A stretch of DNA of 64,000 nucleotides, from positions 565-64,564 of the forward strand of contig CAYNFQ010000003.1 of the NCBI GenBank assembly GCA_964396715.1, given 5' to 3'. Shown here piece by piece: positions 9,345 through 44,377 of this stretch (the first letter of the stretch is position 1; the number at the start of each line of letters is the position of its first letter). The stretch is from an uncultured Gammaproteobacteria bacterium. GTDB taxonomy: Bacteria; Patescibacteriota; Microgenomatia; Daviesbacterales; UBA10151. The position numbers and the translations under genes were made by a program. The notes under the pieces were generated by a model. It saw only the letters and a program-made list of their open reading frames with translations. It had not been told where the DNA came from and ran no database searches.

Positions 9345-10417
9345 TAAACAGCTTCTTCCATGCCAGTTGTTTCCTCTTGCGGTCCAACTACAATTTTTTC
9401 CTTACCCTCTTTTTGCTTCCCCCATGCTTCTCTTATTTCTTTCTCCAATCTTTCCGCCTCTTTTTTATTGCTCTTTAAATAATCTATTGCTGCAGACCTA
9501 CCCTGACCTAATATTTTCTCACCCCATTTTATAAAGGCTCCACTCTTTTCCAAAATTCCCAGTTCTATTCCCACATCCAAAAGTTCCCCTTCATGGGAAA
9601 TGCCATTTTCATCCATATCAAATTCGGCAATTCTAAATGGGGGAGCAACTTTATTTTTAACAACCTTTACTCTATGTCTGGAACCAACAACTTGATCACC
9701 GACTTTTATATTCTCAATTTTTCTTACATCCAGTCTTATCGATGAATAAAATTTTAAGGCCAATCCACCGGTGGTTGTTTCAGGATTTCCAAACATTACT
9801 CCGATTTTTTGCCTGAGCTGGTTGGTAAAAATAATAATTGTATTGGTATTGGAAACAGCACCGGTTAATTTTCTTAATGCTTGTGACATTAAACGCGCCT
9901 GCATTCCCATCACCGCATCTCCCATTTCACCTTCAAGTTCTGCCCTGGGAACCAAAGCCGCAACAGAGTCAATAACTAAAACATCAATTCCGCCGGATCT
10001 GATGAGTGATTCTGCAATTTCTAAGGCCTGCTCACCTGTATCAGGTTGAGAAATTAATAAATCATCCAAATTTACCCCAATTTTTTGGGCTCTTTGCGGA
10101 TCCAGGGCATGTTCTGCGTCAATAAAAGCAGCCACTCCACCCTTTTTTTGAGCCTCGGCTATAACATGCAAACACAGGGTAGTTTTTCCTCCTGCTTCCG
10201 GTCCGTAAATTTCTATAATTCGCCCCTTTGGTAAACCACCAACACCTAAGGCCAGATCAGTCGCAATAGAGCCTGTGGAGATCACCTGGGTAGTCAATTT
10301 TTCTGCTCTTTCACCAAGCCGCATGATAGAACCTGTGCCGTATTGTTTTTGGATTTGCGCTAAAGCTGCAGAGATGGCCGCTTTTTTGGCTTCGTCATTA
10401 TTGGAAGTTTGTATCAT
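9344..10417 (-). CDS. recA: Recombinase RecA
   Basis: [16 protein letters not shown] Walker A, the L1/L2 loop region and canonical RecA length. Confidence 0.95.
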
Positions 10418-12357: not shown

Positions 12358-13953
12358 ATGGATAATGAAGAAATTGATTTTACTAAGTTTAAGTATGTTC
12401 TTTATGCCCGTAAGTCTACAGATGATCCTCAGCGGCAAGTAAGATCTATAGGAGATCAGATATTTGAGTGTAAACAACTTGCTGCAAGACTTGGATTAAA
12501 TGTCATCAAGGTTTTAGAAGAAACAAAATCAGCTAAAAAGCCAAATAAGCGACCATTATTTAGACAAATGCTTAATGATCTCAAGAAAGGTCTCTATGAT
12601 GGCATATTGGCATGGAACCCAGATAGATTGGCTAGGAATATGAAAGAAGGTGGGGAGATTATAGACATGATTGATGAGGAGGAAATAAAGGATCTTAAAT
12701 TTGTTACGCATCATTTTACAAAAGATGCTAACGGAAAGATGCTACTTGGAATGTCATTTGTGCTTTCTAAACAATATAGTGACGATCTATCTCAAAAGGT
12801 AACAAGAGGAAATAAAAGAAAGCGTGCAGAGGGTAAATCATCTACACCCAAACATGGTTATATTATTACAGAGGAAGGTTATTATAAGCCTGACAAAAGA
12901 AATTTTGAATTGATTCAAACCGCATGGGAACTAAGAGCTAAAGGTGAATCCATAGAGCAAATAACAAAGTTTATGAATGATAATGATTACTCAAGAGTCA
13001 TTAAAAGGACAGGCAGAAAGGTTGACATGGATATGAGGATATTAAGTAAAATATTTAAAGATCCATTTTATTACGGAATTTTAATCCAAGCTAAACAAAC
13101 TGTTGATTTAAAAGATATATATAACTTTGTTTCAGCTACAACAGAGGATATTTATAATCAGGTTCAGCAACTTTCTTTTAGACGGCTCAGGCCTTTCAAT
13201 ATAAAACGAAGGTCTGTTTTCTATCCACTCAGAGGTATGATTATATGTTCTTTCTGCAACCATAATATGGTAGTAGGTCCATCAAAGGGCCAAGCTGGTA
13301 AAAGATTTCTCTATTACCGCTGTGATAATCCTTTTTGTACTAAAAACTCAGCAGAGAATCGTAAGAAGCATAGAAATGATCCCACAAAAATAAAGCCCTC
13401 TATTCGAGCAAGAGTAATATTTAATTTTATTTATGATCTATTAAAGGGTGGATTAGGTTTAACAGAGGAAGATTATAAGGGCTATTACGACAATTTAACC
13501 CAACTATCAGATACCACAAGAGAGAAAGTAGGGATTGAAATTCATAGTCTACAGGGAAGGCTAAAAAGACTAAATCAAGAAATAAAGGAACGCTCTTTGG
13601 AACTTGGTAAAGCTAATCAAATACCTACTGTTAAAAAAATCAATGAGGATAAGGTAATAGAACTTGAATCAGAGAAACTTGATTTAAGCAGCCAAATAGA
13701 AGAGTTTCAAGGAAAAATAACTAAACCAGAGGATGATAGGCTAAGTATAGAAGAATTCTTGAACCTCTCCAAAAATGCTGGTGCAATAATCCAATCGGCT
13801 GATGTAGTTATAAAAGATAAAATTTGTAGAGAAATTTTCTTGAACCTTACTGTTAATGAGGAGAAAGTATTGTCCTGTCAACTTCAACCTCACTTTGAGG
13901 AGATGATAAAACAACACCAACTACGTCATGGTCGAGATTTACGAAAAAGTTAG
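12358..13953 (+). CDS. Large serine recombinase (resolvase N-domain + recombinase domain + Zn-ribbon + coiled coil)
   Basis: YARKSTDDPQRQVRSIGDQI catalytic-Ser region, GILAWNPDRLARN, zinc ribbon CSFCNHNM...YYRCDNPFC, and a C-terminal coiled coil. Confidence 0.8.
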   Translation: MDNEEIDFTKFKYVLYARKSTDDPQRQVRSIGDQIFECKQLAARLGLNVIKVLEETKSAKKPNKRPLFRQMLNDLKKGLYDGILAWNPDRLARNMKEGGEIIDMIDEEEIKDLKFVTHHFTKDANGKMLLGMSFVLSKQYSDDLSQKVTRGNKRKRAEGKSSTPKHGYIITEEGYYKPDKRNFELIQTAWELRAKGESIEQITKFMNDNDYSRVIKRTGRKVDMDMRILSKIFKDPFYYGILIQAKQTVDLKDIYNFVSATTEDIYNQVQQLSFRRLRPFNIKRRSVFYPLRGMIICSFCNHNMVVGPSKGQAGKRFLYYRCDNPFCTKNSAENRKKHRNDPTKIKPSIRARVIFNFIYDLLKGGLGLTEEDYKGYYDNLTQLSDTTREKVGIEIHSLQGRLKRLNQEIKERSLELGKANQIPTVKKINEDKVIELESEKLDLSSQIEEFQGKITKPEDDRLSIEEFLNLSKNAGAIIQSADVVIKDKICREIFLNLTVNEEKVLSCQLQPHFEEMIKQHQLRHGRDLRKS

Positions 13954-14004
13954 AACCGAATTTCAAAGCTGTTAGCTCGGCCGCCTGCGGCGGCCTCGCT
14001 TCCG
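13929..14004. repeat. Inverted repeat a, left copy (76 bp, GC-rich, overlaps the last codons of the first recombinase). Its partner is 14935-15010, with 1 mismatch.
   Basis: Direct reverse-complement comparison of 13929-14004 with 14935-15010. Confidence 0.85.
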
Positions 14005-14020
14005 TTATTTTTTGCGCGCG

Positions 14021-14052
14021 CGATTTGTCTTTTTGCTGTCGCAAAAAGACCT
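14021..14052 (+). terminator. Hairpin gtctttttgc-tgtc-gcaaaaagac immediately after the first recombinase
   Basis: 10-bp stem; A/T-rich context. Confidence 0.35.
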
Positions 14053-14423
14053 TATTTAAACCCCGTGAACAGAACAATCACGAGTCCAACCATTGCCAAA
14101 AGAAAAATCGCCCAAGGAATAAAATAAACCGTTAATATTAATTTTGCTGACTTTTGATAATTTTTGATGTAAGGATCTTCGGGCAAAGGATTACTATCTT
14201 TATACCAACCATACAATTTGAGGGCAAAAACAACACTGTTTACTGGTAGCCTGGTATTTTTCCAGAAATCAGAATGTTTTTCTTCCATATACTTCCTAAA
14301 TTGTTGTGCTCGGATAGCTATAAACACAAACATGCCCGCTGTCCATACAACAACAAATAAAAAAGCTGGCATAAGCCACTGTCTGAAAAAAAATAATATA
14401 TTTAAAGTTGTATCTTGAGACAT
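14052..14423 (-). CDS. Small membrane protein (3 predicted TM helices) inside the inverted-repeat-flanked segment
   Basis: ORF track; hydrophobic segments; located between the inverted-repeat-a copies. Confidence 0.35.
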   Translation of the reverse strand: MSQDTTLNILFFFRQWLMPAFLFVVVWTAGMFVFIAIRAQQFRKYMEEKHSDFWKNTRLPVNSVVFALKLYGWYKDSNPLPEDPYIKNYQKSAKLILTVYFIPWAIFLLAMVGLVIVLFTGFK

Positions 14424-14501
14424 TTATTTAAACACCTCCTCCCGTCTAATACTTAGAATTAACTGTAATAATTATACAATTTATTATGAGTAGGCTGAGA
14501 T

Positions 14502-14516
14502 ACATCGGTAACACTT
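14502..14516. repeat. 15-bp inverted repeat c (acatcggtaacactt), partner 14706-14720; the pair flanks the 39-aa micro-ORF
   Basis: Seen directly; the chance expectation in this window is roughly 0.03. Confidence 0.5.
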
Positions 14517-14580
14517 TTCTTTTTGAACGACCCTTGCTTTTTGATTTTATCACGTCTATCTTATTCATATAGCCCAATTA

Positions 14581-14700
14581 GAACTTCTGACCCTTTTCAC
14601 TAGCTCCTGAAGCTATTTTGGTCATTTCTTGCTCAGTTGCACTGCCAACAAAGTTTAATCGTGCGATAAATTTATCAATAAATTCTTCTTTTGCCATAGA
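14581..14700 (-). CDS. Possible 39-aa micro-ORF (MAKEEFIDKFIARLNFVGSATEQEMTKIASGASEKGQKF) flanked by 15-bp inverted repeats
   Basis: Manual translation of the reverse strand. Too short for the ORF track; it may not be expressed. Confidence 0.15.
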
Positions 14701-14789
14701 TTTAGAAGTGTTACCGATGTGCCCTGCTCGTTCATATTATTGAAAAAACAAAATCAATGGAGTATTATTTTAATTGAGCTCAAGAACTG

Positions 14790-14850
14790 CGGGGATTTTT
14801 AATGGCCGTATTGGACAAGTCCTCGCGGATTTGAGCGCACCAGTACGGCC
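14790..14850. other. Long hairpin: 12-bp perfect stem (ttaatggccgta / tacggccattaa) with a 33-nt structured loop. It could be a recombination site or a small RNA.
   Basis: Seen directly. Confidence 0.4.
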
Positions 14851-14934
14851 ATTAATTTTTTATAAAGCTCTTTAAAATTTTTGCGTTTTCTTTTGAGGAT
14901 TTTACAAAAAAAATCCTTTTCGAGCCGATACGTT

Positions 14935-15010
14935 CGAAAGCGAGGCCGCCGCAGGCGGCCGAGCTAACAGCTTTGAAATTCGGTTCTAACTTTTTCGTAA
15001 ATCTCGACCA
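14935..15010. repeat. Inverted repeat a, right copy
   Basis: Reverse complement of 13929-14004 with 1 mismatch. Confidence 0.85.
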
Positions 15011-15107
15011 AAAGAGAGAAAAAGTCCGGAAAGGTGGAGGCGCTCCGTGCGCCGCCGCCCGCACGGAGCGCCGAGAAGCCCTTTTTATATTCTGCCGAGA
15101 GCTGCCG
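15008..15107. repeat. Inverted repeat b, left copy (100 bp, perfect). Its partner is 16551-16650. It contains an internal 13-bp-stem palindrome ggcgctccgtgcg/cgcacggagcgcc.
   Basis: Base-by-base reverse-complement identity over 100 nt. Confidence 0.9.
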
Positions 15108-15152
15108 GAAAAAAGAAGGAAAGAAAACGCAAAAATTTAGGAGAAACAAAAT

Positions 15153-16730
15153 ATGAACAAATACATCGCCTACTGCCGAAAATCCAGAGATGAAGCAGAC
15201 AAACAAGTTTTGTCTATCGAAGCGCAAATTGCCGAACTAAAGGAATTTGCCAGGCGAGAACATTTAGAAATTGTCGAGTTTATTGAGGAAGCCAAAACTG
15301 CCAAAATGCCAGGACGCGAGAAATTTTCCGAAGTGATTAAAAAAATCGAAAAAGGCTACGCCAATGGTATTCTCGCTTGGCACCCAGATCGTTTAGCCAG
15401 AAATTCGATGGACGGTGGAAAGATTGTCTATTTATTGGATATCGGTAAATTGGTCGATCTGAAATTCCCGACTTTCTGGTTTGACAATACCCCGCAAGGA
15501 AAATTTATGCTCTCAATCGCCTTTGGTCAATCAAAGTATTATGTAGACAATCTTTCCGAAAACGTCAAACGGGGCTTACGCCAAAAACTCCGAAACGGAG
15601 TTTGGCCAGCAAAAGCCCCTTATGGCTATGTGAACAATCCCAAAACCAGAGGCATAGATGTTGATCCTGAAAAATCAAAAGCTATTAAGCGAGCTTTTGA
15701 AATGTTTGCAGAAGGAAACCACACTTTTACAGACATAGCCAAATATCTTCGCAAGTTTGATCTGAAGCGTAAAAACGAAAAATCACTTCATATCAACGAA
15801 ATTCGGCAAATTCTCTCCAACAAGTTTTACATCGGGATTATGTTTTACAACGGCGAGTATCACGACGGAAACCATAAATGTTTTATCTCCAAAGAAATTT
15901 TTCAGGAGGCTCAAGAGGAAATAGCCAGAAGAAGCAAACATTTCAAAAAATCATACCGTTTTCCGTTTTTGGGACTTGCAAGGTGCAGCGAATGTGGTGC
16001 GGCCATCACCGCCGAACAACACATCAAGTTTTACAAAACCACTAACCGAAAAGTTAGTTATATTTACTATCGTTGTACCAAAAAACTCGGTCCGTGTTCC
16101 CAAGTTCCAATAACCAGTTTTGAGATGGAAGGACAGTTAAGAAAAGTTGTTTCTGATGTGGTGCTTCCCCAGAGTTGGGCTGACCACTGGCTGAAATTTT
16201 TGGAAAGAGATCAACAAGCTGAAAAAGAATCATCAGAAACAACTATCAAAAATCTCAAAATTGAAATTCAAGATGTAGATCGAAGGCAAAACACGCTTTT
16301 GGACAGTTATTTGGATAGTATCGTTGACCCCGAAACTTATAAATCCAAGAAAAACGAAATGTTCGAAACAAAACTTAAATTACAGGAAGAAATCGTCAAA
16401 GTTGAGGAGACGGGTTCGAGTTGGCTCGAACCTATGAGAGAGTTCATAAATTGCGCCTTACAGGCGCAAAAAATCGCGCGCGCAAAAAATAATTGCGAAG
16501 AATTAGCATTCTTCGCAAAACGTGTCGGCTCGAACTTCTTTTTATCTAATCGGCAGCTCTCGGCAGAATATAAAAAGGGCTTCTCGGCGCTCCGTGCGGG
16601 CGGCGGCGCACGGAGCGCCTCCACCTTTCCGGACTTTTTCTCTCTTTTGGTCGGGGTGACAGGAATTGAACCTGCTGCTTCACGCACCCCATGCGCGCGG
16701 TCTACCGATGACCTACACCCCGTATTCTAG
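15153..16730 (+). CDS. Large serine recombinase, second copy. The annotated 3-prime end reads through a 100-bp inverted repeat and the tRNA, so the true stop is uncertain.
   Basis: YCRKSRDEADKQVLSIEAQI, GILAWHPDRLARN, zinc ribbon CSECGAA...YYRCTKKLGPC, C-terminal coiled coil. Confidence 0.75.
   Translation: MNKYIAYCRKSRDEADKQVLSIEAQIAELKEFARREHLEIVEFIEEAKTAKMPGREKFSEVIKKIEKGYANGILAWHPDRLARNSMDGGKIVYLLDIGKLVDLKFPTFWFDNTPQGKFMLSIAFGQSKYYVDNLSENVKRGLRQKLRNGVWPAKAPYGYVNNPKTRGIDVDPEKSKAIKRAFEMFAEGNHTFTDIAKYLRKFDLKRKNEKSLHINEIRQILSNKFYIGIMFYNGEYHDGNHKCFISKEIFQEAQEEIARRSKHFKKSYRFPFLGLARCSECGAAITAEQHIKFYKTTNRKVSYIYYRCTKKLGPCSQVPITSFEMEGQLRKVVSDVVLPQSWADHWLKFLERDQQAEKESSETTIKNLKIEIQDVDRRQNTLLDSYLDSIVDPETYKSKKNEMFETKLKLQEEIVKVEETGSSWLEPMREFINCALQAQKIARAKNNCEELAFFAKRVGSNFFLSNRQLSAEYKKGFSALRAGGGARSASTFPDFFSLLVGVTGIEPAASRTPCARSTDDLHPVF
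16551..16650. repeat. Inverted repeat b, right copy; it abuts/overlaps the CCA end of tRNA-Pro
   Basis: Perfect reverse complement of 15008-15107. Confidence 0.9.
16648..16722 (-). tRNA. tRNA-Pro (anticodon GGG)
   Basis: The reverse complement CGGGGTGTAGGTCATCGGTAGACCGCGCGCATGGGGTGCGTGAAGCAGCAGGTTCAATTCCTGTCACCCCGACCA folds as a cloverleaf: 7-bp acceptor stem CGGGGTG/CACCCCG, D-stem GGTC/GACC, anticodon loop AUGGGGU, T-arm GCAGG-TTCAATT-CCTGT, encoded CCA. Confidence 0.75.
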
Positions 16731-18836: not shown

Positions 18837-19949
18837 TTAAACCACTTTCTCCCAGGGGAATTCTTCACGGCCAAAATGACCATAGCTGGCAGTTGGTAAA
18901 TAGATTGGCCTTTGTAAATCCAAACCTTGTAAAATTCCTGAAACTGAAGTATCCAAAATTTTATCCATAAAGGAAAGCAATACTTTGTGAGATTTTTTGG
19001 CAGTGCCAAAAGTTTCCACATCTTCCATAGTGGGTTTTTTAGCCCCAATAAAATATGCCAGTCTCACTTCTGCTTTTTCAGCTAGCCCATTTGCCACAAT
19101 ATTTTTGGCTAAAAATCTGGCTGCATATGCCCCGCCTCTATCTACTTTTGAGGGCTCTTTACCGGAAAAACATCCTCCGCCAACTCTGGCATAACCGCCA
19201 TATGTATCCACCACAATTTTTCTGCCGGTTAATCCGCAATCAGAGGCCGGTCCGCCATTGTGCCAGATTCCTGTACCATTAACAATTAAATCATTCTTTT
19301 TTATTTTAAACCCAAACATCTCCAATACCGGTATAACTATAAAATTATAAACATCATCTTTTACCTCATCTAAATTTACGGATTCTTTATGAGGTACAGC
19401 TATGACAACTTGAGTTACTCTGATAGGTTTTCCGTCATTGTATTCTATAGTTACTTGAGATTTTCCATCCGGCCTTAAATACTTAATAATATTCTCTTCT
19501 CTAACAGTATCCATTCTTTTGGTCAAAGAGTGTGCCATCATAATAGGCAGCGGCATTAAAGAGTTTGTCTCCTTACAAGCAAAACCAAACATCATCCCCT
19601 GATCTCCTGCCCCTTTTTTCTTAACCCCCACGGCAATTTCCGGGGATTGTTCATGAACAAATACTTCAATTGGAGACTGATCTGAAAAATTAAATTTAGG
19701 ATCTGTATAGCCTAATCTTTTTATTTGCTCTCTGGCAATTTTTTTAAAATCTATTTTGGCTTTTGCTCCAATTTCCCCGGCAATAATTAATCTGTCATTT
19801 CCTGCCAGACATTCAATGGCAGTCCTGCCCTGTGGGTCTTGAGCTAAAACTGCATCCAAAATGGCATCGGAAATCTGGTCGCAAATTTTGTCCGGATGAC
19901 CGCTACAGACTGATTCAGAAGTAAAAGTTGTAATGCCGTTTTTTGCCAT
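18837..19949 (-). CDS. metK: S-adenosylmethionine synthetase
   Basis: GHPDKICDQISDAILD, GAGDQGMMFG and the C-terminal metK signature. Confidence 0.9.
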   Translation of the reverse strand: MAKNGITTFTSESVCSGHPDKICDQISDAILDAVLAQDPQGRTAIECLAGNDRLIIAGEIGAKAKIDFKKIAREQIKRLGYTDPKFNFSDQSPIEVFVHEQSPEIAVGVKKKGAGDQGMMFGFACKETNSLMPLPIMMAHSLTKRMDTVREENIIKYLRPDGKSQVTIEYNDGKPIRVTQVVIAVPHKESVNLDEVKDDVYNFIVIPVLEMFGFKIKKNDLIVNGTGIWHNGGPASDCGLTGRKIVVDTYGGYARVGGGCFSGKEPSKVDRGGAYAARFLAKNIVANGLAEKAEVRLAYFIGAKKPTMEDVETFGTAKKSHKVLLSFMDKILDTSVSGILQGLDLQRPIYLPTASYGHFGREEFPWEKVV

Positions 19950-20122
19950 AAGTTTTCCCTTTCGGGCACATCATTTTGGCACCGTTAACTTATCGGTTGT
20001 CGCTACGTTCATGTAAACTGAACGTAGACTCTTGATGCAATATTATTTAACCATACATCAGCTATTTTGGCAAGTGACGAATATAGTGAGTCATCCTGAG
20101 CGACCAAAGGGAGTCGAAGGAT

Positions 20123-24394: not shown

Positions 24395-24918
24395 TTAGAT
24401 GTTTTCCTTATTGTTGTTTTCTTTGCTGTTACTTTTTTAACTGTAGCGACTTTTCTGACAACCGGCTTTTTAATCTTGTCTGTTTTCTTACTTATCACTT
24501 GCTCGCCACGCTTCGCTTGCGAAGCGGGTATCTTGTTACTTGTTACTTGTTCTAAAGGTTTTAACTCTTCAGCCCCAATAATACTCATTTTAACTACAGT
24601 TGTACTATCTCCTTCTCTTGCTCCCATTCTTATCATACTGGTATATCCGGAAATTCTATTTCCCAGTTTCGGAGCTATTTCTTTTATTAATCTTTCTTGT
24701 AGTAATTTATTGGAAAAATATGCTTGGAGTAATCTTTGGGAATTTTTACTCTTGGCCAAATTGATAATTTTATCAGCCAACCCTTTTATTGCCTTAGCTT
24801 TAGCCTCTGAAGTAGTTAAGTTTCCATGCAGGAAAAGCTCCTGCACTAAGCTTTTAAAGAGTGCTCGTCTTTCATTTTTATTTCTTCCCAGTTTTTTACC
24901 ATAAACTCTATGCCTCAC
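24391..24918 (-). CDS. rplQ: 50S ribosomal protein L17 with a Lys-rich C-terminal extension
   Basis: MRHRVYGKKLGRNKNERRAL, RMGAREGD. The tail contains a heptamer array and a palindrome. Confidence 0.9.
   Translation of the reverse strand: MRHRVYGKKLGRNKNERRALFKSLVQELFLHGNLTTSEAKAKAIKGLADKIINLAKSKNSQRLLQAYFSNKLLQERLIKEIAPKLGNRISGYTSMIRMGAREGDSTTVVKMSIIGAEELKPLEQVTSNKIPASQAKRGEQVISKKTDKIKKPVVRKVATVKKVTAKKTTIRKTSK
24499..24542. repeat. GC palindrome cgcttcgc-tt-gcgaagcg plus (CTTGTTA)x3 inside the L17 C-terminal tail, encoding EQVTSNKIPASQAKR
   Basis: Seen directly. Confidence 0.85.
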
Positions 24919-25815: not shown

Positions 25816-26418
25816 TTATCTTGAATAATATTCCACAATCAACTGCTCATCAATTGATTGTTCCATCTCCTCCCGTTGAGGAATTCTTAAAACCTTGCCT
25901 ACTGTAGCCTGTCTTTCAAGCCACTCCGGCAAGGTCACATTTACCTCTAAACTCTTTTTAACCTGTGCATTATCGCCTAATTTAGGCGATAATGCAATAG
26001 CCTGATCCTTCTTGACTATAAATGAAGGAATAGTCACCTTGCTATTGTCAACCAGGATATGACCGTGTGAGACCATCTGTCTTGCCTCGGCCCTGCTTGT
26101 TGCGAAACCTAACTTATAAACTACATTATCAAGCCTTGTTTCCAAAGTTTGGAGTAAACTTAAACCTGTAGAACCTTTAACTTTGGAGGCCATCTCATAA
26201 TATTTTTTAAATTGTCTCTCTAAAATTCCATACAACCTTTTTGCTTTTTGTTTTTCCCGCAGCTGCACCCCGTATTCTGAAATTCTTCTTCTTACTCTGC
26301 CGGTGTGTTGGCCGGGCGCCACAATCCCCTTTCTTTCCAAGGATTTAACATCTTTGGCAAAAAGAGGCAACCCTTCCCTTCGACTCAGTCTGCGTTTCGG
26401 ACCGGTATATCTACCCAT
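25816..26418 (-). CDS. rpsD: 30S ribosomal protein S4
   Basis: MGRYTGPKRRLSRREG, S4 domain. Confidence 0.9.
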   Translation of the reverse strand: MGRYTGPKRRLSRREGLPLFAKDVKSLERKGIVAPGQHTGRVRRRISEYGVQLREKQKAKRLYGILERQFKKYYEMASKVKGSTGLSLLQTLETRLDNVVYKLGFATSRAEARQMVSHGHILVDNSKVTIPSFIVKKDQAIALSPKLGDNAQVKKSLEVNVTLPEWLERQATVGKVLRIPQREEMEQSIDEQLIVEYYSR

Positions 26419-26440
26419 AGATTGACCTCCTGTCTATGGA

Positions 26441-26480
26441 ATTTCCAATTTGATATTTGATATTTGATATTTGATATTTG
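26441..26480. repeat. Heptamer tandem array (TTTGATA)x4-5 in the rpsK-rpsD intergenic region
   Basis: Seen directly. Confidence 0.9.
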
Positions 26481-26510
26481 CCGCCTTTGGCGAGCCTCGT
26501 CTTTGACGGG
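26479..26510. repeat. 32-bp GC-rich element tgccgcctttggcgagcctcgtctttgacggg, copy 1 (intergenic)
   Basis: Identical to 35690-35721. Confidence 0.85.
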
Positions 26511-26523
26511 AGATTTGACATTA

Positions 26524-26919
26524 CTATACCCTCCTCCTTTTTTTGGGTCTTGGCCCATTGTGGGGAATCGGTGTTACATCAGCAATCATGGTGATGTTTA
26601 TCCCCGCATTCCTTAAAGCCTTGATGGTGGCGTCTCTTCCCGTACCCGGGCCTTTGATATAAACTTCACAAGAGGTCATACCCATGGCCTTGCCTTTTTG
26701 GGCAACAGCCTCCATTGCCGAAATTGCGGCAAAGGGGGTGGCTCTTCTGGCTCCTTTAAAACCGGATGAGCCGGATGAACCCCAGGCTAAAGTATTACCA
26801 GATGCATCTGTTAAAGTTACTAAAGTATTATTAAAAGTTGCAGTCACATAGACCCTGCCGCTAGTTACTTTCTTTTCTGTTTTTTGTTTTTTTATTGATG
26901 TGATTTGTTGCTTAGCCAT
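26524..26919 (-). CDS. rpsK: 30S ribosomal protein S11
   Basis: ATFNNTLVTLTDASGNTLAWGSSG. Confidence 0.9.
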   Translation of the reverse strand: MAKQQITSIKKQKTEKKVTSGRVYVTATFNNTLVTLTDASGNTLAWGSSGSSGFKGARRATPFAAISAMEAVAQKGKAMGMTSCEVYIKGPGTGRDATIKALRNAGINITMIADVTPIPHNGPRPKKRRRV

Positions 26920-26920
26920 A

Positions 26921-26980
26921 TTCTTTTTAGTTCCTCTAATTTCTTTTTAGTTCCTCTAATTTCTTTTTAGTTCCTCCTTC
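26921..26980. repeat. 20-bp unit ttctttttagttcctctaat repeated three times in tandem (third copy degenerate). Each unit carries an SD-like AGGAAC on the coding strand; it spans the rpsM 3-prime end and the rpsK RBS.
   Basis: Seen directly. Confidence 0.9.
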
Positions 26981-27388: not shown

Positions 27389-27403
27389 TAGTAGTTTCCT
27401 CCG

Positions 27404-27457
27404 AATTGTAAATTGTAAATTGTAAACCTGTCTGCCGACAGGCAAGATTGTAAATTC
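27404..27457. repeat. (AATTGTA)x3 + GC hairpin cctgtc-tgcc-gacagg + one more AATTGTA unit, between rpmJ and the rpsM start
   Basis: Seen directly. Confidence 0.85.
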
Positions 27458-29254: not shown

Positions 29255-29488
29255 ATGAACAGGGATCTTACAGAAAAAACATTACATTCTCTTCTTTCAG
29301 GTTCTCATCCTTTGGCTAAAAAATATGCTGGAAAACAGGTCTTTGTAGTAGATAAAGAGATTATACCTATTGGAAGAAGTACAAAATCCTTGTCTGATTT
29401 TAAACAACTAAAGATAAAACATGGTAAATCACCTGTCGCTGTTTTTGTTCCTCAGCCTGGAGCATCATATATACTTATCCTCAAATGA
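29255..29488 (+). CDS. Small DUF5678-like protein; such proteins are commonly paired with retropepsin-like proteases
   Basis: 77 aa, ...KYAGKQVFVVDKEIIPIGRS...; overlaps the next gene by 4 nt. Confidence 0.3.
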   Translation: MNRDLTEKTLHSLLSGSHPLAKKYAGKQVFVVDKEIIPIGRSTKSLSDFKQLKIKHGKSPVAVFVPQPGASYILILK

Positions 29489-29895
29489 AGATATTATCCT
29501 CTCCTTTTAGTTTCAAAGGAGATGGTTATTTAGGTAAAATCTATCGGCCCTATATTCAGATACTGATCTCTTCAGATAAAATTGATGAATGGATTCCTAC
29601 AGAAATGATTGTTGACACAGGTGCTGACTATACTCTTTTTCCAAAAAGATATGCTGGATTTTTAGGAATCAATCTCAATAAGGAATGTAAAATGGAAAAA
29701 ACCCAAGGTGTGGGAGGACAAGAAAAAATTTACCTTTGTAAAAAAGGTGTTTTTATAAAAATTGGAGAGTTTAAGCAAGAAATTCCTGTAGGCTTTTTAA
29801 ACAGGGATAATATCCCTTCACTCCTAGGAAGATTGCAAGCTTTAGAAGTCTTAACTCTGACTATGAAAGATAAAACAACAAAATTTGAGATATAG
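29485..29895 (+). CDS. Retropepsin-like (clan AA) aspartic protease
   Basis: EMIVDTGADYTLFP contains the D-T/S-G-A catalytic signature of retroviral-type aspartyl proteases. Confidence 0.5.
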   Translation: MKILSSPFSFKGDGYLGKIYRPYIQILISSDKIDEWIPTEMIVDTGADYTLFPKRYAGFLGINLNKECKMEKTQGVGGQEKIYLCKKGVFIKIGEFKQEIPVGFLNRDNIPSLLGRLQALEVLTLTMKDKTTKFEI

Positions 29896-29925
29896 TCGTA
29901 CAAGCAATTGGCATAAAGTTTGTGC

Positions 29926-29942
29926 GGACACCTTGAAGGTGT
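29926..29942. terminator. Hairpin gacacc-ttgaa-ggtgtc between the convergent protease gene and the 204-aa ORF; a bidirectional terminator candidate
   Basis: Seen directly. Confidence 0.3.
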
Positions 29943-29969
29943 CAAGCTAAATTTCTTTTATTAAGGATT

Positions 29970-30584
29970 TTATTTTGAAGGAGAACTTTTTTGTTGCAAC
30001 TCCTGAAACCTTCTTCCAAGTGCATCAGATTTTAAATAATCCTTATAGGACTGCACACCTTCTGCTAATCCCTTTGATGAGTCAAACTCTGTTTTCAATC
30101 TTGTTTGGTCATTTGTCCCTAAAGCATCAAAAATACCTTTTTGTGTTGTTATCCTATTCGATATACTATGTATTTGACCCATATCAACTCCTATATTTAA
30201 ATAGATAATATTTCCATATCCATCATCCCATTGAGCAATCATTGATTCTGCCATTTCTTCGCTAGTTAACCTTTTTCCTGCCAGGACAGCTTGTTTTATA
30301 GCTTCACTATCTGTAACATGTCCTAATGGTTTAGGACTATGGACTACTTGTTCATGAATTCTATCTAATTCTGCTTTTACGGCTTGATGTTCTGCAGCAA
30401 CAGTTGCTTCAAGCCCGAGACGGAATCGTTCGCCCTGAGCAGTTAAGGCTTCTTTAAGCTTAGCATTTGCTGCTTCTCCTTCTCTTTTGATACGATCTAT
30501 TTCTGCCTGTTCTTTTTCAGAAGGTTTCATCCCCAGAAAGCCATGAATTCTGCCAATTAAGTCTGGTGGTTCTTTATCTGCCAT
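29970..30584 (-). CDS. Hypothetical 204-aa protein inserted between secY and adk
   Basis: ORF track; no recognisable motif; slightly GC-richer. Confidence 0.3.
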   Translation of the reverse strand: MADKEPPDLIGRIHGFLGMKPSEKEQAEIDRIKREGEAANAKLKEALTAQGERFRLGLEATVAAEHQAVKAELDRIHEQVVHSPKPLGHVTDSEAIKQAVLAGKRLTSEEMAESMIAQWDDGYGNIIYLNIGVDMGQIHSISNRITTQKGIFDALGTNDQTRLKTEFDSSKGLAEGVQSYKDYLKSDALGRRFQELQQKSSPSK

Positions 30585-32331: not shown

Positions 32332-32804
32332 ACGGATCTTAACTGACTTAGTGCCTCCATTGTGGCGTAAACATTTGATGCTTTATTTTTGGTTCCCAGA
32401 GATTTGGAAACTATATCGTGAATGCCGGCAGCCTCAACCACCACCCGCACCGCTCCTCCGGCAATCACACCCGTACCAGTTGGAGCGGGTTTGAGTAAAA
32501 CTTTGGCGGCGCCGTTTTTAATCAAAACCTGGTGAGGAATAGTTCTATCCTTAAGAGGCACTGTAATCAAATGTTTTTTTGCATAAGTTGTGGCTTTTCT
32601 GACAGCTGATTGAACCTCAGAGGCTTTGCCCAAGCCTACCCCCACTTTTCCCTTTCTATCTCCAACAACTACCAAAACCGACAGAGATCTCTTATCTCCT
32701 CCTTTGGTTTTTTTGGAAACTCTGTTTACCTGAACCACTCTTTCAAAGTACTCCTGCAATTCTGTATTTATTGGTTGATTATTGATATTTGACACATTTG
32801 ACAT
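32328..32804 (-). CDS. rpsE: 30S ribosomal protein S5. It overlaps rplO by 4 nt, so there is no L30 gene.
   Basis: RVSKKTKGG...VVVGD..G.VG.G; the first codons lie in a heptamer array. Confidence 0.9.
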
Positions 32805-32837
32805 TTGAAATTTGAAATTAGAAATTTAAAATTCTAA
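32787..32837. repeat. Degenerate heptamer array (ATTTGAN)x6-7 spanning the rpsE start codon and the rplR-rpsE gap
   Basis: Seen directly. Confidence 0.8.
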
Positions 32838-35592: not shown

Positions 35593-36048
35593 CTATTCCT
35601 TACCTCCTTTCTCTATCTTTGAAGAAGATTTTATTTTTTTTACTGGTTTTTCTTTAATTTTTTCTGACTGTTTACTGTCCACTGTACCCTGCCGCCTTTG
35701 GCGAGCCTCGTCTTTGACGGGTTCACTTGCTTTGTCCTCCGGCATTACCTGCCTGCCGGCAGGCACGGCCTCAGCAATCACCTCTTCTGCTGCCATCTTC
35801 TGCTCAGCCTCAACAATTTCTGCTAAATTTTTGCCGACAACTTTGGTAATTTTGAAATGTTTATTCTTAGATACCGGCTTGCATTTTATGATCTCCACTA
35901 TATCTCCGTCTTTCACTCCAATAGAATCATCCGCTAAGTATTTTTTAGTTCTAATAAATGTTTTTTTATACAGGGGGTGGGCAGCTACTCGCTCCACAAT
36001 GACCGTGGCTGTATTTTGTAATTTTGTTGATGTCACCCTACCAATCAT
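35593..36048 (-). CDS. rpsQ: 30S ribosomal protein S17 with a C-terminal extension of about 70 aa
   Basis: Canonical S17 OB fold in residues 1-80; the extension contains the 32-bp repeat and a GC palindrome. Confidence 0.85.
   Translation of the reverse strand: MIGRVTSTKLQNTATVIVERVAAHPLYKKTFIRTKKYLADDSIGVKDGDIVEIIKCKPVSKNKHFKITKVVGKNLAEIVEAEQKMAAEEVIAEAVPAGRQVMPEDKASEPVKDEARQRRQGTVDSKQSEKIKEKPVKKIKSSSKIEKGGKE
35690..35721. repeat. 32-bp GC-rich element, copy 2, inside the rpsQ C-terminal extension (encodes PVKDEARQRRQ)
   Basis: Identical to 26479-26510. Confidence 0.85.
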
Positions 36049-37407: not shown

Positions 37408-37800
37408 CTACTTTTCCTCCTTTTTTTCTGCTTTTTCAGTTTTGACATTTGACATTTGAGATTTGAGATTTAAATCGTCCGTTAGGACGATTTTAATATG
37501 ACTCATTCTTCTTTTGAATGGCTTGACTCTGCCTCTGGTGCCTGCTCTAAATCTCCTCATCTTCATACTTTCATCAACCTCCAGTTTTTTGAAAACCACC
37601 TTATCTGCATCTAATCCTGCAACTTTGGCATTTGCCAAAACTGTTTCCATGGCTTTTTCCAGATCTTTTGCAGCATATTTTGGTGTGACTCTAAGTATTG
37701 CCAAAGCCTGACTGGGGTTCATCTTTCGCACCAGATCAGCCACCAACCTCAATTTCCGAGGTGAGGTGTGTATATATCGTTGTATTGTTTGTATTTCCAT
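37408..37800 (-). CDS. rplV: 50S ribosomal protein L22; the C-terminus is encoded by a heptamer array plus a GC hairpin
   Basis: PRKLRLVADLVRKMNPSQALAILRVTPK. Confidence 0.9.
   Translation of the reverse strand: MEIQTIQRYIHTSPRKLRLVADLVRKMNPSQALAILRVTPKYAAKDLEKAMETVLANAKVAGLDADKVVFKKLEVDESMKMRRFRAGTRGRVKPFKRRMSHIKIVLTDDLNLKSQMSNVKTEKAEKKEEK
37441..37490. repeat. (TTTGACA)x2 (TTTGAGA)x2 + hairpin tcgtcc-gtta-ggacga, encoding the L22 C-terminus and lying just before the rpsC RBS
   Basis: Seen directly. Confidence 0.85.
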
Positions 37801-38101: not shown

Positions 38102-38868
38102 TACTTTCTCCTTTTCAAAATATATTTGTTGGTCCATTTCTTTTTATTTCTGGTTTTACCAACAGCAGGACGGCCGTATTTGGTCATTGGCCTTTTTCTG
38201 CCAATTCCGGACCTTCCTTCTCCTCCTCCATGAGGATGGGAATCCGGATCCTGAGCCACACCTCTAACAGTCGGTCTAATGCCCATATGTCTCATTCTGC
38301 CTGCTTTTCCTATCACTCTTGCCCTAAACTCTTCATTCCCTAAAACCCCCACAGTTGCCAAAGATTGCAAAGGTACCATTCTAATCTCTCCGGAAGGCAA
38401 TTTCAAATGAGCAAATCCACCTTCCTTGGCAAGAAGCTGCAAAGCAACTCCCGCAGATCTGCCCAGCTGCCCGCCCCTTCCAGGAACGAGTTCTACATTA
38501 TGCACCAGGGTGCCCACAGTTAAATTCTTTAACTGCATTGCATTGCCCGCTCTTGCCTCCACTTTTTCACCTGATTCAACTTTATCTCCAACTTGCAACC
38601 TTGATGGAGCAAGTATGTACCTAAACTCCCCATCCGTATATTTAATTAGAGCAATACCAACATTTCTATTTGGATCATAGTCTACTGAAACAACCTCACC
38701 TGAAATTCCAAACTTATCTCTTGTAAAATCAATTTCCCGCCAGTATCTTTTGTGTCTGCCGCCCTGACTGCGCACTGTCACCATTCCACCAGCTGATCTT
38801 CCAGAGTGTTTCTTAAGTAATGTTTTTAAATTTTTTATTGTTAACTTGTTACTTGTTACTTGTGCCAT
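38101..38868 (-). CDS. rplB: 50S ribosomal protein L2
   Basis: [11 protein letters not shown]..., [10 protein letters not shown]. Confidence 0.9.
38844..38864. repeat. (ACTTGTT)x3 encoding AQVTSNKL at the L2 N-terminus
   Basis: Seen directly. Confidence 0.85.
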
Positions 38869-39301: not shown

Positions 39302-39304
39302 ATT

Positions 39305-39332
39305 CTTGTTACTTGTTACTTGTTACTTGTTA
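39305..39332. repeat. (CTTGTTA)x4 spanning the rplD stop (encodes ...KVTSNK*) and the rplW RBS/start
   Basis: Seen directly. Confidence 0.9.
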
Positions 39333-40083
39333 CCTTTCCACTTAACCTTTCCACTGCCTCTTTAGTGATCAGTAACATGTCGTGTCTTAAGATCTCATAG
39401 GCATTTATCAAATCCGCAGGTAATGCACTCATTCCTGGAATATTCCTAACAGCTCTTACCACATTGTCCATCTTTTCTGCTGTAATGATTAATGCACTCG
39501 CAGATTTTTGTTTCTTGTCTGATGACTGCGGGCCCCCGAAGGGGAGAACGACTGACGACATTAACTTTACCATCTCTTTTGTTTTACCAGAAGCCTTTTC
39601 TATCCCTGATATTCCTAATATTCCCTTATTCCCCAACTTGTCAGATAAAGCAGCCATTAAAGCCGCTTTTTTCATTTTCTTGGGTAAATCTAATTTTACT
39701 TTGCGGGGTTTCGGCCCAAACACAATCCCTCCTCCCACAAAAATTGGGGCTCTGATCGCACCGTGTCTGGCTCTGCCTGTGCCTTTTTGTCTCTGGATTT
39801 TGGCTGTTGAACCGACCACCTCACCTCTGGTTTTGGTGTTACCTGGTTGAGTTTTTTGATTAGCTGTATAAACTCTTAAAGCCTGGGCTAGTAATTTTTT
39901 ATTAACCTCTCCTCCAAAAATTTCTTTAGGGAGTGATAAAGTCCCAGTTGATCTACCTGCTAGGGAATAAACTGGAACTGATAATTTTGTTTGTCGTTTA
40001 TCGTTTATCGTTTTTCGTTCTGCTTTTTGTGATTTTACGATAGACGATTTACGATTAACGATTAACGATTTCTTAACCGGCAT
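39316..40083 (-). CDS. rplD: 50S ribosomal protein L4, with an N-terminal extension encoded by inverted heptamer arrays and a C-terminus ...KVTSNK
   Basis: L4 core LSVPVYSLAGRSTG...TQPGNTKTRGEV. Confidence 0.9.
   Translation of the reverse strand: MPVKKSLIVNRKSSIVKSQKAERKTINDKRQTKLSVPVYSLAGRSTGTLSLPKEIFGGEVNKKLLAQALRVYTANQKTQPGNTKTRGEVVGSTAKIQRQKGTGRARHGAIRAPIFVGGGIVFGPKPRKVKLDLPKKMKKAALMAALSDKLGNKGILGISGIEKASGKTKEMVKLMSSVVLPFGGPQSSDKKQKSASALIITAEKMDNVVRAVRNIPGMSALPADLINAYEILRHDMLLITKEAVERLSGKVTSNK
39995..40071. repeat. Two oppositely oriented heptamer arrays (CGTTTAT-type and ACGATTA-type) encoding the N-terminal extension of L4
   Basis: Seen directly. Confidence 0.75.
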
Positions 40084-41071: not shown

Positions 41072-44000
41072 CTAACTTTGTTTTCGGTAATACCAGAAGC
41101 TAAACAGAGCCGCCAAGGTAATAGTTAATATCACTAACCACTTATTTTTAATCAATGAATCAACCACAGTTGGTGTTTGTTGAAATGCTTGCGCTTCCCC
41201 TAATACCTCAGGTGTTTGAGTGGGTACATCGCTCTTTTTTACCTCTTGGGTAATTTCTGCCGAGGTGGTGGTCTCTCCCAAAACACCCGGGGCAAATCCT
41301 GCTGCCGGTTCGCTAACCACTGCGCCTTGTGGTGTGGCTGACAGTTCATTGGAAAAATCCCCCGGGGCGCAACCATTACCTGCTCTTGCCCTAAAATAAT
41401 AGGTAGTTCCTCCGGAAAGCCCCTGGACAGTATATGAAGAGGTTCCGGGACCACCAATATTGGGGTTACCATACTGTTGTTGCCCGGAGGTAAGTCCGTA
41501 AGTTGCCAGGTAATAGCTGACAGGATCTTTAGCTTTGCTCCAGTTTAAGATGACGCTATTTACTCCACCGATTGCAGACAGAAGAGTAGGTGCGCTGCCG
41601 GGTTTTGCATCAGAGCAAACAGGCGGCGTGCCGCCTCCGCCGGCAGAGGAAAGCGCCTGGGTGGTTGAACCAGCAGCAGATGAGGCTGCAACTGTGCGGG
41701 TGGTGGCATAATATGAGGCTTTGGTGGCTGTAAATGTACAAATTCCTGCAGCCACTGTACAAGTTGCCGGAGCCACAATCCCATCCGAAGTCCAGCCTGA
41801 AGAAGTATTGGTGGAGCGTACCACGTTGAGGGTTTGACCATTTAAGGAAGTACCTACAAAAATATTCAAAGTAATGGCCTGGCTAAATTCCAAACCAAGA
41901 TTGGGAACACCCCACTGCAAGGCCCCCTCAACCGTGGTACCTGAGCTAAATCCGGACAAAGCACCGCTTGAAACATTGGCTGCAGCCAGCAGGGTGGAGT
42001 CAATATTGCCGCCTCCTGCTTTGGAGATAGTGGTACCTGAAGGCAATATCACATTGCTGGTCCCACCAGTTACTGCCACTGTCATAGTCATCTGCTGATT
42101 GACATTGACTGATGGGGTAGCAGCCTGGTTGGTGGTACCAGTTGGCAGGGAAAAAATTCCGCTGGAGAAAAAGGTGGCCGGACTAAAATCAGTTGCAGAA
42201 ATTGTTGAGGTGCTCAGTGTGGTGCGGGCCTCATCCGTATAATAGGGCCTGTATTTGACATTATTACTCACGCTATCCCCTGTACCTCCTGAATTGGTGG
42301 AATGAGTGGGTCCACTTTGAGAACCCCACCAGTTGTGAGAAGCAGTGACCAGCGTTACCCCTGCTTCTGCAGTTACCCCATTTCCGTTATTTCCAGAAAT
42401 TTGCGAGTTTTTAATAGTAACATTGCCTCCATTAACCTGAACTGCTATATCGGCATTGGAAAAGTTGATCTTTTCAATCGTGACAGTGCCTGTGGTAATT
42501 GTTAAGGCTGGCTCTCCGCTTGTTTCCTCCCAGATGGTAGTATTGCCCGCTCCCTTAATGGTCAGGTTTTTGGAAACAGTAACCGCCTCATCAAAACTTC
42601 CGGCCAAAATATTAACTGTGCCATTACCCGCTACAGCATTAACTGCCCGCTGGATAGTCAGGAAAGGATTAGATGCTACTCCGCTGGCTGTATTGTCATC
42701 CCCGGTTGGGGAGACATAAACATTACTGTTGATGTCAAACTGGGAAAAATGGCTGGTGGTGAAAGTAAGTATGCCACCAAATTCTCCGGGAGTAAATGAT
42801 AAATCCCCCGAAATAGGATAATTTGAGCTGGATGGAGGGATTTCACTACCGCTGTCATCTTTAACAATCAGAGCTGGTGTATCTGTGATGCCCAAACTAT
42901 CCAGGCCGTACATGGCGAGCGTGGCACCGGCATTTTTCAAATCCTGGGCGGTTCGGGCATCAAAACCAATTTTTCCCGCCTCTACCATCTCCAGTTTACT
43001 GCCCAGGTTTTGCAACAAGGTTTTGGTATTTTGGCTGGTTAAATTTAGAGTGGCGCTAAAAGTGATTTTCCCTTTGCCTGCTTTTTCAAAATAGAGGCCG
43101 GATGCAGCCGAGGGATTGTCAAGATCACCCAAATTTGTCGTTATGCCGGAGGCATTGATAGTGGAAACCAAACTGGCTATGGAAGGAGCCGGCGAACCAT
43201 TAAACCAGCCTTTGGTGGGAGTTGCGGCAGTAGACCAGGTTGCACCACCATCAGCAGTTCTGGCAATTGATGATCCGGCAGCCGGATCAGAGGCGGATAC
43301 TGATTGAGCATTGACAATGGTCGAGCTTGATTTTTGATAAGTAACCTTGTCTATCTCTGATCCTGAATTATTTTTTAGGGTGATTCTGTCTCCGTCCCCA
43401 TTAGAACTAAGATTATTTAACCAAGCAGCGCCTGTATTTTCGTAGACCACAACCCCCTGGGCAGGAATAGTCCCCAGTCCAGAGAGGCTTTTGGTCGTAT
43501 TTGCCTCATCAACGAGTGTCCAGCCGGTCAGTGAAATGTCGGCATTTGTTTTATTAAAAAGCTCCACCCACTCGTTCTGACCCGCTGACGGATGATACAC
43601 AAACTCATTAATTACTACGCTGGCTGTGCTTTCATCAAAAGGAGTAGCCACCCCTGAGGCAATAGTCCCCACTACCACAAAGACGGTAAAATGATTAAGT
43701 CCTGTGATAGTCAGGGTTTTATCTCCAGGAGTGACCCCGCCCAAGGTAACAAAGCTTTGGCCGTCTTCCGAGGCTTTTACCTCCACATTGTCCACAGTGG
43801 GAGTAGGTAAGGTTAAGGTATATTCAAAAGTGCCGTCTTGCATATCAGAGGAGATATCATAAGCAGTCTTTGACAAGGCCCCACTTTCTGCCATCTGTTT
43901 ATCAGTTAAAATAATCTCTTTGATAGTTACTTTGCCTGGAGAATCTGGAAGTTTATTAAATTTAACTGTGACTTTACTATTTTGAGGAGCTGTATAGGTT

Positions 44001-44317: not shown

Positions 44318-44336
44318 TCAGGGATTATCCTACATC

Positions 44337-44377
44337 TTAACTTCAATATCAACGCCGGCTGGGATTTCTAAATGCAT
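44337..44377. repeat. Duplicate of the rpsJ 3-prime end (would encode [15 protein letters not shown]). It is about 85% identical to 45035-45077, and all differences are synonymous.
   Basis: Alignment by eye of the two segments. Confidence 0.75.

Follow-up and report, generated by a model that had tools for sequence, protein, structure and literature searches.

A 30-nt GC-rich palindromic element inserted without target-site duplication into heptamer arrays of Candidatus Daviesbacteria

A subset of Candidatus Daviesbacteria (candidate phyla radiation, CPR) carries a dispersed, low-copy, GC-rich palindromic element of 30 nt. Its insertions are clean, add exactly 30 nt and leave no target-site duplication. 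Two copies are carried by the stretch of DNA analysed in this study (64 kb, hereafter called the window), one in a spacer between ribosomal protein genes and one in frame in the gene of ribosomal protein S17. Both are probably (at about 0.6) copies of a non-autonomous palindromic mini-insertion element. The family appears low-copy, sporadic and unusually uniform.

Results

Two copies in the ribosomal protein cluster of the window

Exact copies of the 32-mer TGCCGCCTTTGGCGAGCCTCGTCTTTGACGGG lie at 26479-26510 and 35690-35721 of the + strand, as reported in the preliminary description. No further match with up to three mismatches was found within the 64-kb window, and 100 dinucleotide-preserving shuffles gave 0 matches to the 32-mer (chance expectation 0). 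The ORFs agree with the places that had been given to the two copies, one between rpsK and rpsD and the other in the S17 gene, where the 32-mer is read as PVKDEARQRRQ. The features of both loci are collected in Table 1. All the genes around the two copies are on the minus strand.

Table 1. Features of the window linked to the element, and host sites of the element in other genomes. Positions are those of the window.
Feature	Position	Strand	Context and evidence
Copy 1 of the element	26481..26510	-	rpsK-rpsD spacer; exact match and nhmmer hit 26510-26481
Copy 2 of the element	35692..35721	-	C-terminal tail of S17, in frame, contributing PVKDEARQRR; exact match
Heptamer array (CAAATAT) x4-5	26446..26480	-	Immediately 3' of copy 1 on the coding strand; TRF
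Single unit CAAATCT	26511-26517		5' of copy 1
Degenerate heptamer array CAGGGTA CAGTGGA CAGTAAA CAGTCAG	35664..35691	-	Immediately 3' of copy 2
rpsD (S4)	25816..26418	-	Downstream of copy 1; ORF and Pfam
rpsK (S11)	26524..26919	-	Upstream of copy 1
rpsQ (S17), 151 aa	35593..36048	-	Hosts copy 2
Peptide stretch spanning the element			...ASEPVKDEARQRRQGTVD...
Second GC-rich palindromic insert, unrelated to the 30-nt element	35749..35769	-	S17 tail; sense strand GCCGTGCCTGCCGGCAGGCAG, translated AVPAGRQ
Palindrome GCCTGCCGGCAGGC	35751-35764
Empty target site in the L22 tail	37438..37474	-	TTTAAATCTCAAATCT/CAAATGTCAAATGTCAAAACT; junction between 37459 and 37458
New host site, L22			C-terminal tail; L002, L22 protein named Candidatus Daviesbacteria by NCBI
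New host site, L1			N-terminal extension; gene after nusG-rplK
New host site, LeuRS			L005
New host site, Mur-ligase/FolC-like protein
New host site, PduO-type cobalamin adenosyltransferase

The spacer that holds copy 1 is 105 nt long. In related genomes, S11 and S4 are either separated by 0 nt or by a spacer containing heptamers without the element. The array at copy 1 was analysed with TRF (period 7, 4.7 copies, 100% matches). A heptamer array had been described at the intergenic copy; the S17 copy is also followed by a period-7 array on the coding strand, which translates as QGTVDSKQS.

Copy 2 sits 31 codons before the S17 stop. The Pfam S17 domain covers residues 3-69, and the protein therefore has a C-terminal extension of ~80 aa, where roughly 70 aa had been proposed. 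This tail is in frame and conserved across the Daviesbacteria homologues (104-159 aa). It also contains a second insert (Table 1), which behaves as a 21-nt indel. AVPAGRQ occurs in the window and in L009, L011 and L017; L012 and L015 lack it and have an uninterrupted IAEVMPE.

The source is a metagenome assembly, and a chance repeat or an assembly artefact was considered. The record JACPUL010000002.1 (GCA_016192255.1, Candidatus Daviesbacteria, same organism) is identical to window positions 25593-46048, both copies included, and the gene order of the ribosomal cluster at both copies is that of related Daviesbacteria; a mis-join is therefore not an issue. With a chance expectation of 0 and the element present in five other assemblies (see below), a chance repeat or an artefact has practically no likelihood.

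Sequence and predicted structure

On the sense strand, the inserted unit of 30 nt reads CCCGTCAAAGACGAGGCTCGCCAAAGGCGG. The 32 bp shared by the two copies are identical as first described, but the terminal CA of the 32-mer (coding strand) belongs to the target, because the gap in the filled/empty alignments is exactly 30 columns. The G+C content is 67% in the element versus 39% in the window, a genome that had been called AT-rich and is moderately so.

Two tandem hairpins with stems of 4-6 bp and AAA triloops were predicted with both RNA and DNA parameters. The hairpins of the two halves are alike (CGTC-AAA-GACG and CGCC-AAA-GGCG) and are combined with a central dyad (GACGAG-G-CTCGCC). The predicted fold energy of the element alone is -11.1 kcal/mol as RNA (z -1.7) and -7.0 kcal/mol as DNA (z -2.4), and these z-scores are weak. 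Two substitutions in the L003 copy each disrupt one predicted pair without compensation. As the substitutions in the copies are not compensatory, the predicted double hairpin is plausible and unproven.

No Rfam family was matched by the element. A terminator or a promoter was considered, and no terminator-like or promoter-like site was found on its sense strand. A DNA uptake sequence was ruled out by the low copy number, and a CRISPR-like array was also considered and rejected.

Copies in other genomes

The central 20-nt core of the element was scanned against 596 Gb of representative genomes (the genome of the source organism was not among them) and against JGI metagenomes. The scan was exact, so variant cores would be missed. 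Two matches were obtained in the representative genomes and five in the JGI metagenomes. In two cases, a pair of matches was one sequence recovered from different samples; the number of new independent sites is therefore five, from assemblies of different projects. All five hold a complete element. The host genes were identified by Pfam and synteny (Table 1). All the contigs are low in G+C (36-41%) and have the element inside heptamer arrays. The two GTDB representative genomes that matched have one exact-core copy each. The further copies that the preliminary description had proposed to look for are therefore present, in other genomes and in other genes.

Three of the new copies match the window at 32/32 positions; of the other two, one carries two substitutions (CCCGCC...GGCAG) and the other C3>T. 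Across the seven sites, five copies are 30/30 identical and the range is 28-30 of 30. At the positions outside the search pattern, the five other sites together show 3 differences in 50. Over 7.2 kb, the ribosomal cluster of L002 shares ~70% identity with that of the window and is as distant as that of other Daviesbacteria, which, with the name of its L22 protein, places L002 in Daviesbacteria; its copy, in a different gene, is still 32/32 identical to the window. Identity of the copies therefore does not show recency, and the earlier reading of the perfect match as the sign of a recent event was abandoned.

Decayed copies were searched for in 292 kb of related DNA (Hamming distance <=9; nhmmer with E up to 100). 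None was found: only near-perfect copies are present, with nothing intermediate. In viral contigs the exact core was absent, and a degenerate pattern gave only unrelated high-GC phage sequence. A peptide profile with random flanks, whose expected reach in local tests was E about 1e-3, was run against a collection of 5.8 billion proteins; the word index gave only four candidates, and there was no hit. No presence/absence polymorphism was seen in the 90% identity clusters of the LeuRS and FolC-like hosts, all members of which carry the element.

Near-perfect copies only, a low copy number and a sense-only orientation (see below) would also be produced if the copies were templated from a conserved master locus, such as a small RNA or the end of a mobile element, by reverse transcription or repair synthesis. 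Under such a remote scenario, cross-species identity would reflect the conservation of the master and not that of the copies. None of the seven sites resembles a master gene. The contexts in which the core was found include no rRNA, tRNA or other non-coding RNA and no viral contig, and no reverse transcriptase was seen in the window or next to a copy. Templating from a master locus is accordingly regarded as very improbable.

Filled and empty sites

S17 homologues (n=32) were aligned, and PVKDEARQRR was found in one of them, the window protein. The protein of the closest S17 relative (L009) reads ...KGSE/QGTVDSEQSE..., without the 10 aa. At the DNA level, the S17 tail is ...GGAAGCGAA/CAGGGTACAGTGGACAGTGAACAGTCAG... 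in L009 (empty) and ...GCAAGTGAA/CCCGTCAAAGACGAGGCTCGCCAAAGGCGG/CAGGGTACAGTGGACAGTAAACAGTCAG... in the window (filled). In the pairwise alignment, the gap is exactly 30 columns and the flanks are not duplicated. The array is present in L009 without the element; the S17-tail array is therefore older than the insertion. The empty site in this relative supports the proposal of a small, dispersed, GC-rich element that landed in frame in an S17 tail where it is tolerated.

A second pair was provided by the L22 tail, which is filled in L002 (TTTAAAACTCAAAACT/30-nt element/CAAAAGTCAAAAGTCAAAACTG) and empty in the window (TTTAAATCTCAAATCT/CAAATGTCAAATGTCAAAACTG). Pairwise alignment again gave an exact 30-column gap and no duplication. 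Target-site duplication is therefore absent in two independent filled/empty pairs. This result and the length of 30 nt do not fit the MITE-like nature that had been suggested for the element.

The arrays are unchanged at both empty sites, so they pre-exist the insertion. For this reason, and because both insertions are duplication-free, the arrays were rejected as footprints of a 7-bp target duplication. In LeuRS, a 30-aa block made of heptamer-encoded residues and the element is inserted after the CxxC knuckle, as judged against ten other LeuRS. This insertion is visible at the protein level only, because the nearest homologues are at most 59% identical. The search for an empty L1 site in the window led to the ORF at 63280-63957, which is not L1; by eye it is like an MltG/YceG-type protein.

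Heptamer arrays as the target

All seven copies are inside period-7 tandem arrays, at a unit boundary. The association with heptamer arrays and predicted hairpins, which had been put forward as a check, was found at 7/7 sites. The insertion point is 5' of a C, which is followed by A at six of the seven sites (CG at the other), and the target form of the arrays is CAAnnnn. Examples are CAAATCT/element/CAAATAT x4, CAAAACT/element/CAAAAGT x2 and CGAATAA/element/CGAATTA. The array units vary between sites (CAAATAT, CAGTGGA, CAAAAGT, CAACTAA, CGAATAA). The antisense 5' flank of the element is TTTG at 4/7 sites and CCTG, TGTG or TTCG at the others, a preference that is confounded by the composition of the arrays.

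With a strict criterion (at least 3 units, at least 90% self-match), 12 period-7 arrays were found in the window versus 0.05 in locally shuffled sequence, and no array of period 6 or 8-12. A looser cut gave 16 period-7 arrays in the window, nearly all CAA-rich on the sense strand. They occur where genes meet, in the tails of proteins and within some genes. Since the arrays cover <1% of the window, seven insertions out of seven in arrays are far beyond chance.

Among the relatives, seven period-7 arrays were counted in 16 kb of L011 and none in L012 and L015. The arrays are lineage-specific and strictly of period 7, and they invade gene ends and permissive loops.

Copies that are in register with the array units, devoid of target duplication and all inside heptamer arrays might have spread without any dedicated enzyme, by RecA-dependent ectopic homologous recombination or gene conversion between the array of an element-bearing donor and a similar recipient array. 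A recA gene is present in the window (9344-10417), and the S11-S4 copy of the window and the LeuRS copy (L005) share 66 nt at 95.5% identity, flanking CAAATNT units included. GC clusters of yeast mitochondria are known in gene conversion (PMC8811140). This route is nevertheless unlikely. The S17 flanks (GCAAGTGAA and CAGGGTACAGTGG) and the S11-S4 flanks (GTCAAATCT and CAAATATCAAATAT) have essentially only CA in common; with so little homology, gene conversion, which had been proposed as an alternative to transposition, is improbable in a simple form between the two window loci. The wide differences in array units between sites speak against conversion between arrays, and the identical copies in different species would be left unexplained.

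Orientation, reading frames and coding tolerance

At all seven sites the element is sense-oriented, with CCCGTC... on the coding or transcribed strand. Six of the seven independent sites are inside ORFs, some of them of essential genes, and one is an operon spacer; no host ORF is broken. This distribution does not fit a REP-like element taken as extragenic, the other class that had been suggested. The element is exactly 10 codons long. None of its three sense frames has a stop, and all the sense peptides are hydrophilic. It is read as PVKDEARQRR in S17, L22 and L1, as RQRRGSPKA in the cobalamin adenosyltransferase and the FolC-like protein, and as PSKTRLAKG in LeuRS. As three frames are in use, it is the DNA or the RNA that is conserved and not the peptide.

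Coding tolerance follows from the length of 30 nt and from the open, hydrophilic sense frames. In the S17 tail, the element would simply be translated as ten extra hydrophilic residues and would be selectively near-neutral. One antisense frame has a stop and two are hydrophobic, so selection alone could explain the bias towards the sense orientation. The sense strand is also the G-rich strand at every locus, which confounds the strand bias, as does gene orientation.

Conservation of the nucleic acid could also mean that the element is a functional cis-acting motif under selection, either an RNA double hairpin for a protein or an RNase or a dyad DNA site for a recombinase or a regulator. The 30/30 identity across ~70% identical genomes, the absence of decayed copies in the 292 kb of related DNA and the location of all copies on the transcribed strand are consistent with such a motif. 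In a variant of this explanation, the element could sequester the Shine-Dalgarno sequence of rpsD. The GGAGG of rpsD is 60-70 nt 3' of copy 1 and is predicted to pair with UCUCC at the 5' edge of the element, and the predicted minimum-free-energy fold of the rpsK-rpsD spacer is -20.1 kcal/mol (z -2.6). The motif would, however, have to act in three frames inside ORFs of unrelated proteins as well as in one spacer. The orthologous positions are empty in relatives, several of which have abutting S11 and S4 genes without a spacer. The uncompensated L003 substitutions, the weak z-scores of the element alone (-1.7 to -2.4) and the absence of an Rfam match are further arguments against a function, which is considered improbable.

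Discussion

Proposed origin of the copies

For the preferred reading, a non-autonomous mini-insertion element, a trans-acting enzyme would recognise the hairpins and make the copies, and the heptamer arrays would serve as landing pads. The precedent that would fit best is a single-strand, hairpin-dependent and duplication-free reaction of the IS200/IS605-TnpA or REP-RAYT type. The absence of duplication, the predicted hairpins and the strand bias together make single-strand HUH-type transposition a better fit than the DDE-type mobilisation of MITEs. We infer that the element is mobile and that such an enzyme may be responsible. A search of the window and of the neighbourhood of the copies gave neither a transposase nor any other candidate enzyme; RAYT, TnpA and IS were not found in the 64 kb, nor RAYT or TnpA close to the copies. 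The apparently very low copy number and the absence of decayed copies in the 292 kb of related DNA would be unusual for a selfish repeat family.

A bolder proposal, tentative and rather doubtful, is that the 30-mer and the heptanucleotide arrays form a single undescribed CPR insertion system, in which an enzyme would place the double hairpin at unit junctions, duplication-free and in one orientation. The same machinery could create or maintain the arrays. If true, no smaller mobile DNA unit would be known in bacteria.

Significance

If the mini-insertion reading is right, part of the length variation of ribosomal protein extensions and enzyme loops in the CPR would consist of selfish or neutral DNA inserts and would not be adaptive. 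This would have consequences for the interpretation of such extensions in ribosome structures and in phylogenomic alignments. Recognition and insertion of a duplication-free, array-targeted insert of 30 nt with the same sequence in different species would call for a mechanism that has yet to be described in the phylum. The presence or absence of the element also gives a sharp marker of Daviesbacteria populations, and in metagenome-assembled genomes the element may lead to broken contigs and odd gene calls.

Comparison with known systems

Full-text searches of a paper library turned up no account of elements or arrays of this kind in CPR bacteria. The GC clusters of yeast mitochondria are short (tens of nt), GC-rich and palindromic or hairpin-forming, are found in spacers and in frame in the ribosomal protein gene var1, are regarded as mobile and encode no enzyme (PMC8811140). 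The 30-nt element resembles them as a short GC-rich palindromic insert of an AT-richer genome, with spacer and in-frame sites that include ribosomal proteins. It differs in that GC clusters are organellar, whereas the element belongs to a CPR bacterium and has heptamer arrays as its target. GC clusters also usually have terminal AG/TAG direct repeats, read as putative target duplications, and diverge quickly; the element has no such repeats and is nearly perfectly conserved. The 'byp' elements of Magnusiomyces and the double-hairpin elements of Allomyces can be named as analogues alongside the GC clusters. The double-hairpin architecture recalls that of the Allomyces mitochondrial elements. 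Translational bypassing is unneeded for the 30-nt element, because of its length and its stop-free frames.

Rickettsia palindromic elements (RPE) are palindromic repeats inserted in frame into unrelated and often essential genes, where they are translated and compatible with protein function (PMC10969869). Stop-free in-frame insertion into protein-coding genes is shared by the element, at six coding sites. RPE are ~100-150 bp long, are present in tens of copies per genome of a reduced-genome bacterium and give one conserved peptide per family. In contrast, the element gives three peptides from the same DNA, has 1-2 copies per genome in the available data and is always in heptamer arrays. Its length and the taxon make homology to RPE families implausible.

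With REP/REPIN sequences, the element shares an imperfect palindrome of 20-40 nt, duplication-free insertion, hairpins that are likely recognised and a strand bias. REP sequences are extragenic, abundant, often paired and have a GTAG-type head, none of which applies to the element: there are two copies in 64 kb, one exact-core copy in each of the two matching GTDB genomes and no pairs. IS200/IS605-derived elements are likewise duplication-free and go in 3' of a fixed tetra- or pentanucleotide; the opposite-strand flank of the element is only loosely conserved (TTTG 4/7). Bacterial MITEs (Correia, ERIC, RUP) are comparable as non-autonomous dispersed repeats able to land in operons and ORFs. 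They are 50-500 bp long with terminal inverted repeats and target-site duplications, features that are not those of the element, whose halves are similar hairpins and not distinct terminal inverted repeats.

The Daviesbacteria arrays are built of 7-nt tandem units and are scattered through the genome, and cyanobacterial short tandemly repeated repetitive (STRR) sequences likewise have heptanucleotide units. STRR arrays are not known to host a conserved GC-rich insert. The STRR class exists in cyanobacteria (PMC5088731). The phylum and the unit sequences differ from those of the Daviesbacteria arrays, and the likeness is one of unit length only. Taken with the systems above, the element works like GC clusters, RPE and REP/RAYT but is a member of none of them.

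Heptamer arrays

The window contains 12-16 tandem arrays with units of exactly 7 nt, against 0.05 expected from locally shuffled sequence; no arrays with a period of 6 or 8-12 were found in it. Read on the sense strand, almost every array is rich in CAA; the arrays occur where genes meet, in the tails of ribosomal proteins and within some genes. Among the related Daviesbacteria loci used for comparison, 7-nt arrays abound in one lineage (L011); L012 and L015 have none.

Palindromic inserts and repeats

Besides the 30-nt element, a second family of GC-rich palindromes (core CCTGYCGGCAGG) was observed in the window. Its S17 member corresponds to a 21-nt in-frame indel of S17 tails, translated as AVPAGRQ and missing from L012 and L015. 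A related hairpin lies within a TTTACAA heptamer array in the L36-S13 spacer, and a longer version is also present. Next to the array of CAAGTAA heptamers in the tail of L17 lies a GC-rich palindrome of a third type, CGCTTCG...CGAAGCG. The S17 tail of L011 carries GCTCGCTTCGCGAAGCGAG (~5850-5890), similar to this third type, at the position occupied in the window by the 30-nt element. The position has the look of a hot spot for inserts of this kind.

The LeuRS gene of L005, a host of the 30-nt element on another contig, also contains a ~57-nt palindromic repeat (GTCATCCTGAGCGA...CCTCAGAATGAC) that occurs twice in frame and encodes ILSxSEGSxDSSAxPQNDN. The FolC-like host of the element contains a GC-rich segment that differs from strain to strain.

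S13-S11-S4 junctions

A 20-nt unit (sense GGAACTAAAAAGAAATTAGA), repeated 2.8 times with 100% identity, extends over the stop codon of S13 and the start codon of S11. The Shine-Dalgarno-like sequence that precedes rpsK has undergone tandem duplication and now codes for the end of S13. The S11-S4 spacer (minus strand) is predicted to fold with -20.1 kcal/mol (z -2.6). In the predicted structure, AUCUCC at the 5' edge of the 30-nt element pairs with the rpsD Shine-Dalgarno sequence GGAGGU and the heptamer array is enclosed. The spacer is absent in several relatives, S11 and S4 directly abutting.

Other features of the window

Other genes interrupt the ribosomal gene cluster in two places. Between S10 and L3 lie genes for a sigma-70 region-4 protein and a 1081-aa LTD/fn3-domain protein, together with a 37-aa ORF. 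Between SecY and Adk there are a gene for an unknown protein of 204 aa and a gene pair of opposite orientation, one member of which is aspartyl-protease-like. Immediately upstream of the S-adenosylmethionine synthetase gene is a SAM-I/IV riboswitch that scores 47 bits and exceeds the gathering score. At NCBI, the contig of this organism (JACPUL010000002.1, GCA_016192255.1) would end at about window position 14597, within the serine recombinase region (12358-16730). That region may represent an integrated or invertible element; an assembly problem is another possibility.

Coordinates of the features (window positions unless stated)
Feature	Coordinates	Remark
7-nt arrays, examples	1289-1326, 24528-24553, 27402-27428, 32793-32827, 37438-37474, 38841-38866, 39302-39337, 39987-40072, 51014-51045, 63852-63885	
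Second-family palindrome, S17	35749-35769	
Related hairpin, L36-S13	27430-27447	
Longer second-family version	5374-5421	
Third-type palindrome with the adjoining CAAGTAA array, L17 tail	24498-24553	
~57-nt repeat, two copies	L005 LeuRS ORF residues ~245-262 and ~383-400	
20-nt tandem unit	26921-26976	
S11-S4 spacer	26419-26523	
S10-L3 interruption	41072-45014	
SecY-Adk interruption	29255-30584	
SAM-I/IV riboswitch	19941-20043	
S-adenosylmethionine synthetase gene	18837-19949	
Large serine recombinase genes	12358-13953 and 15153-16730	
tRNA	16651-16722	beside the serine recombinase genes
Inverted repeat, 76 nt	13929-14004 / 14935-15010	perfect or near-perfect; associated with serine recombinases
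Inverted repeat, 103 nt	15005-15107 / 16551-16653	perfect or near-perfect; associated with serine recombinases

Taxonomic labels

Two GTDB genome contigs carrying the 30-nt element, L002 (CAZYPW010000007.1) and L003 (CAYPAU010000008.1), are labelled 'uncultured Gammaproteobacteria bacterium'. Both have 36-40% G+C and heptamer arrays. The ribosomal cluster of L002 is of the Daviesbacteria type, 70% identical to the window, and its L22 is named Candidatus Daviesbacteria at NCBI. The Gammaproteobacteria labels of both contigs are probably wrong.
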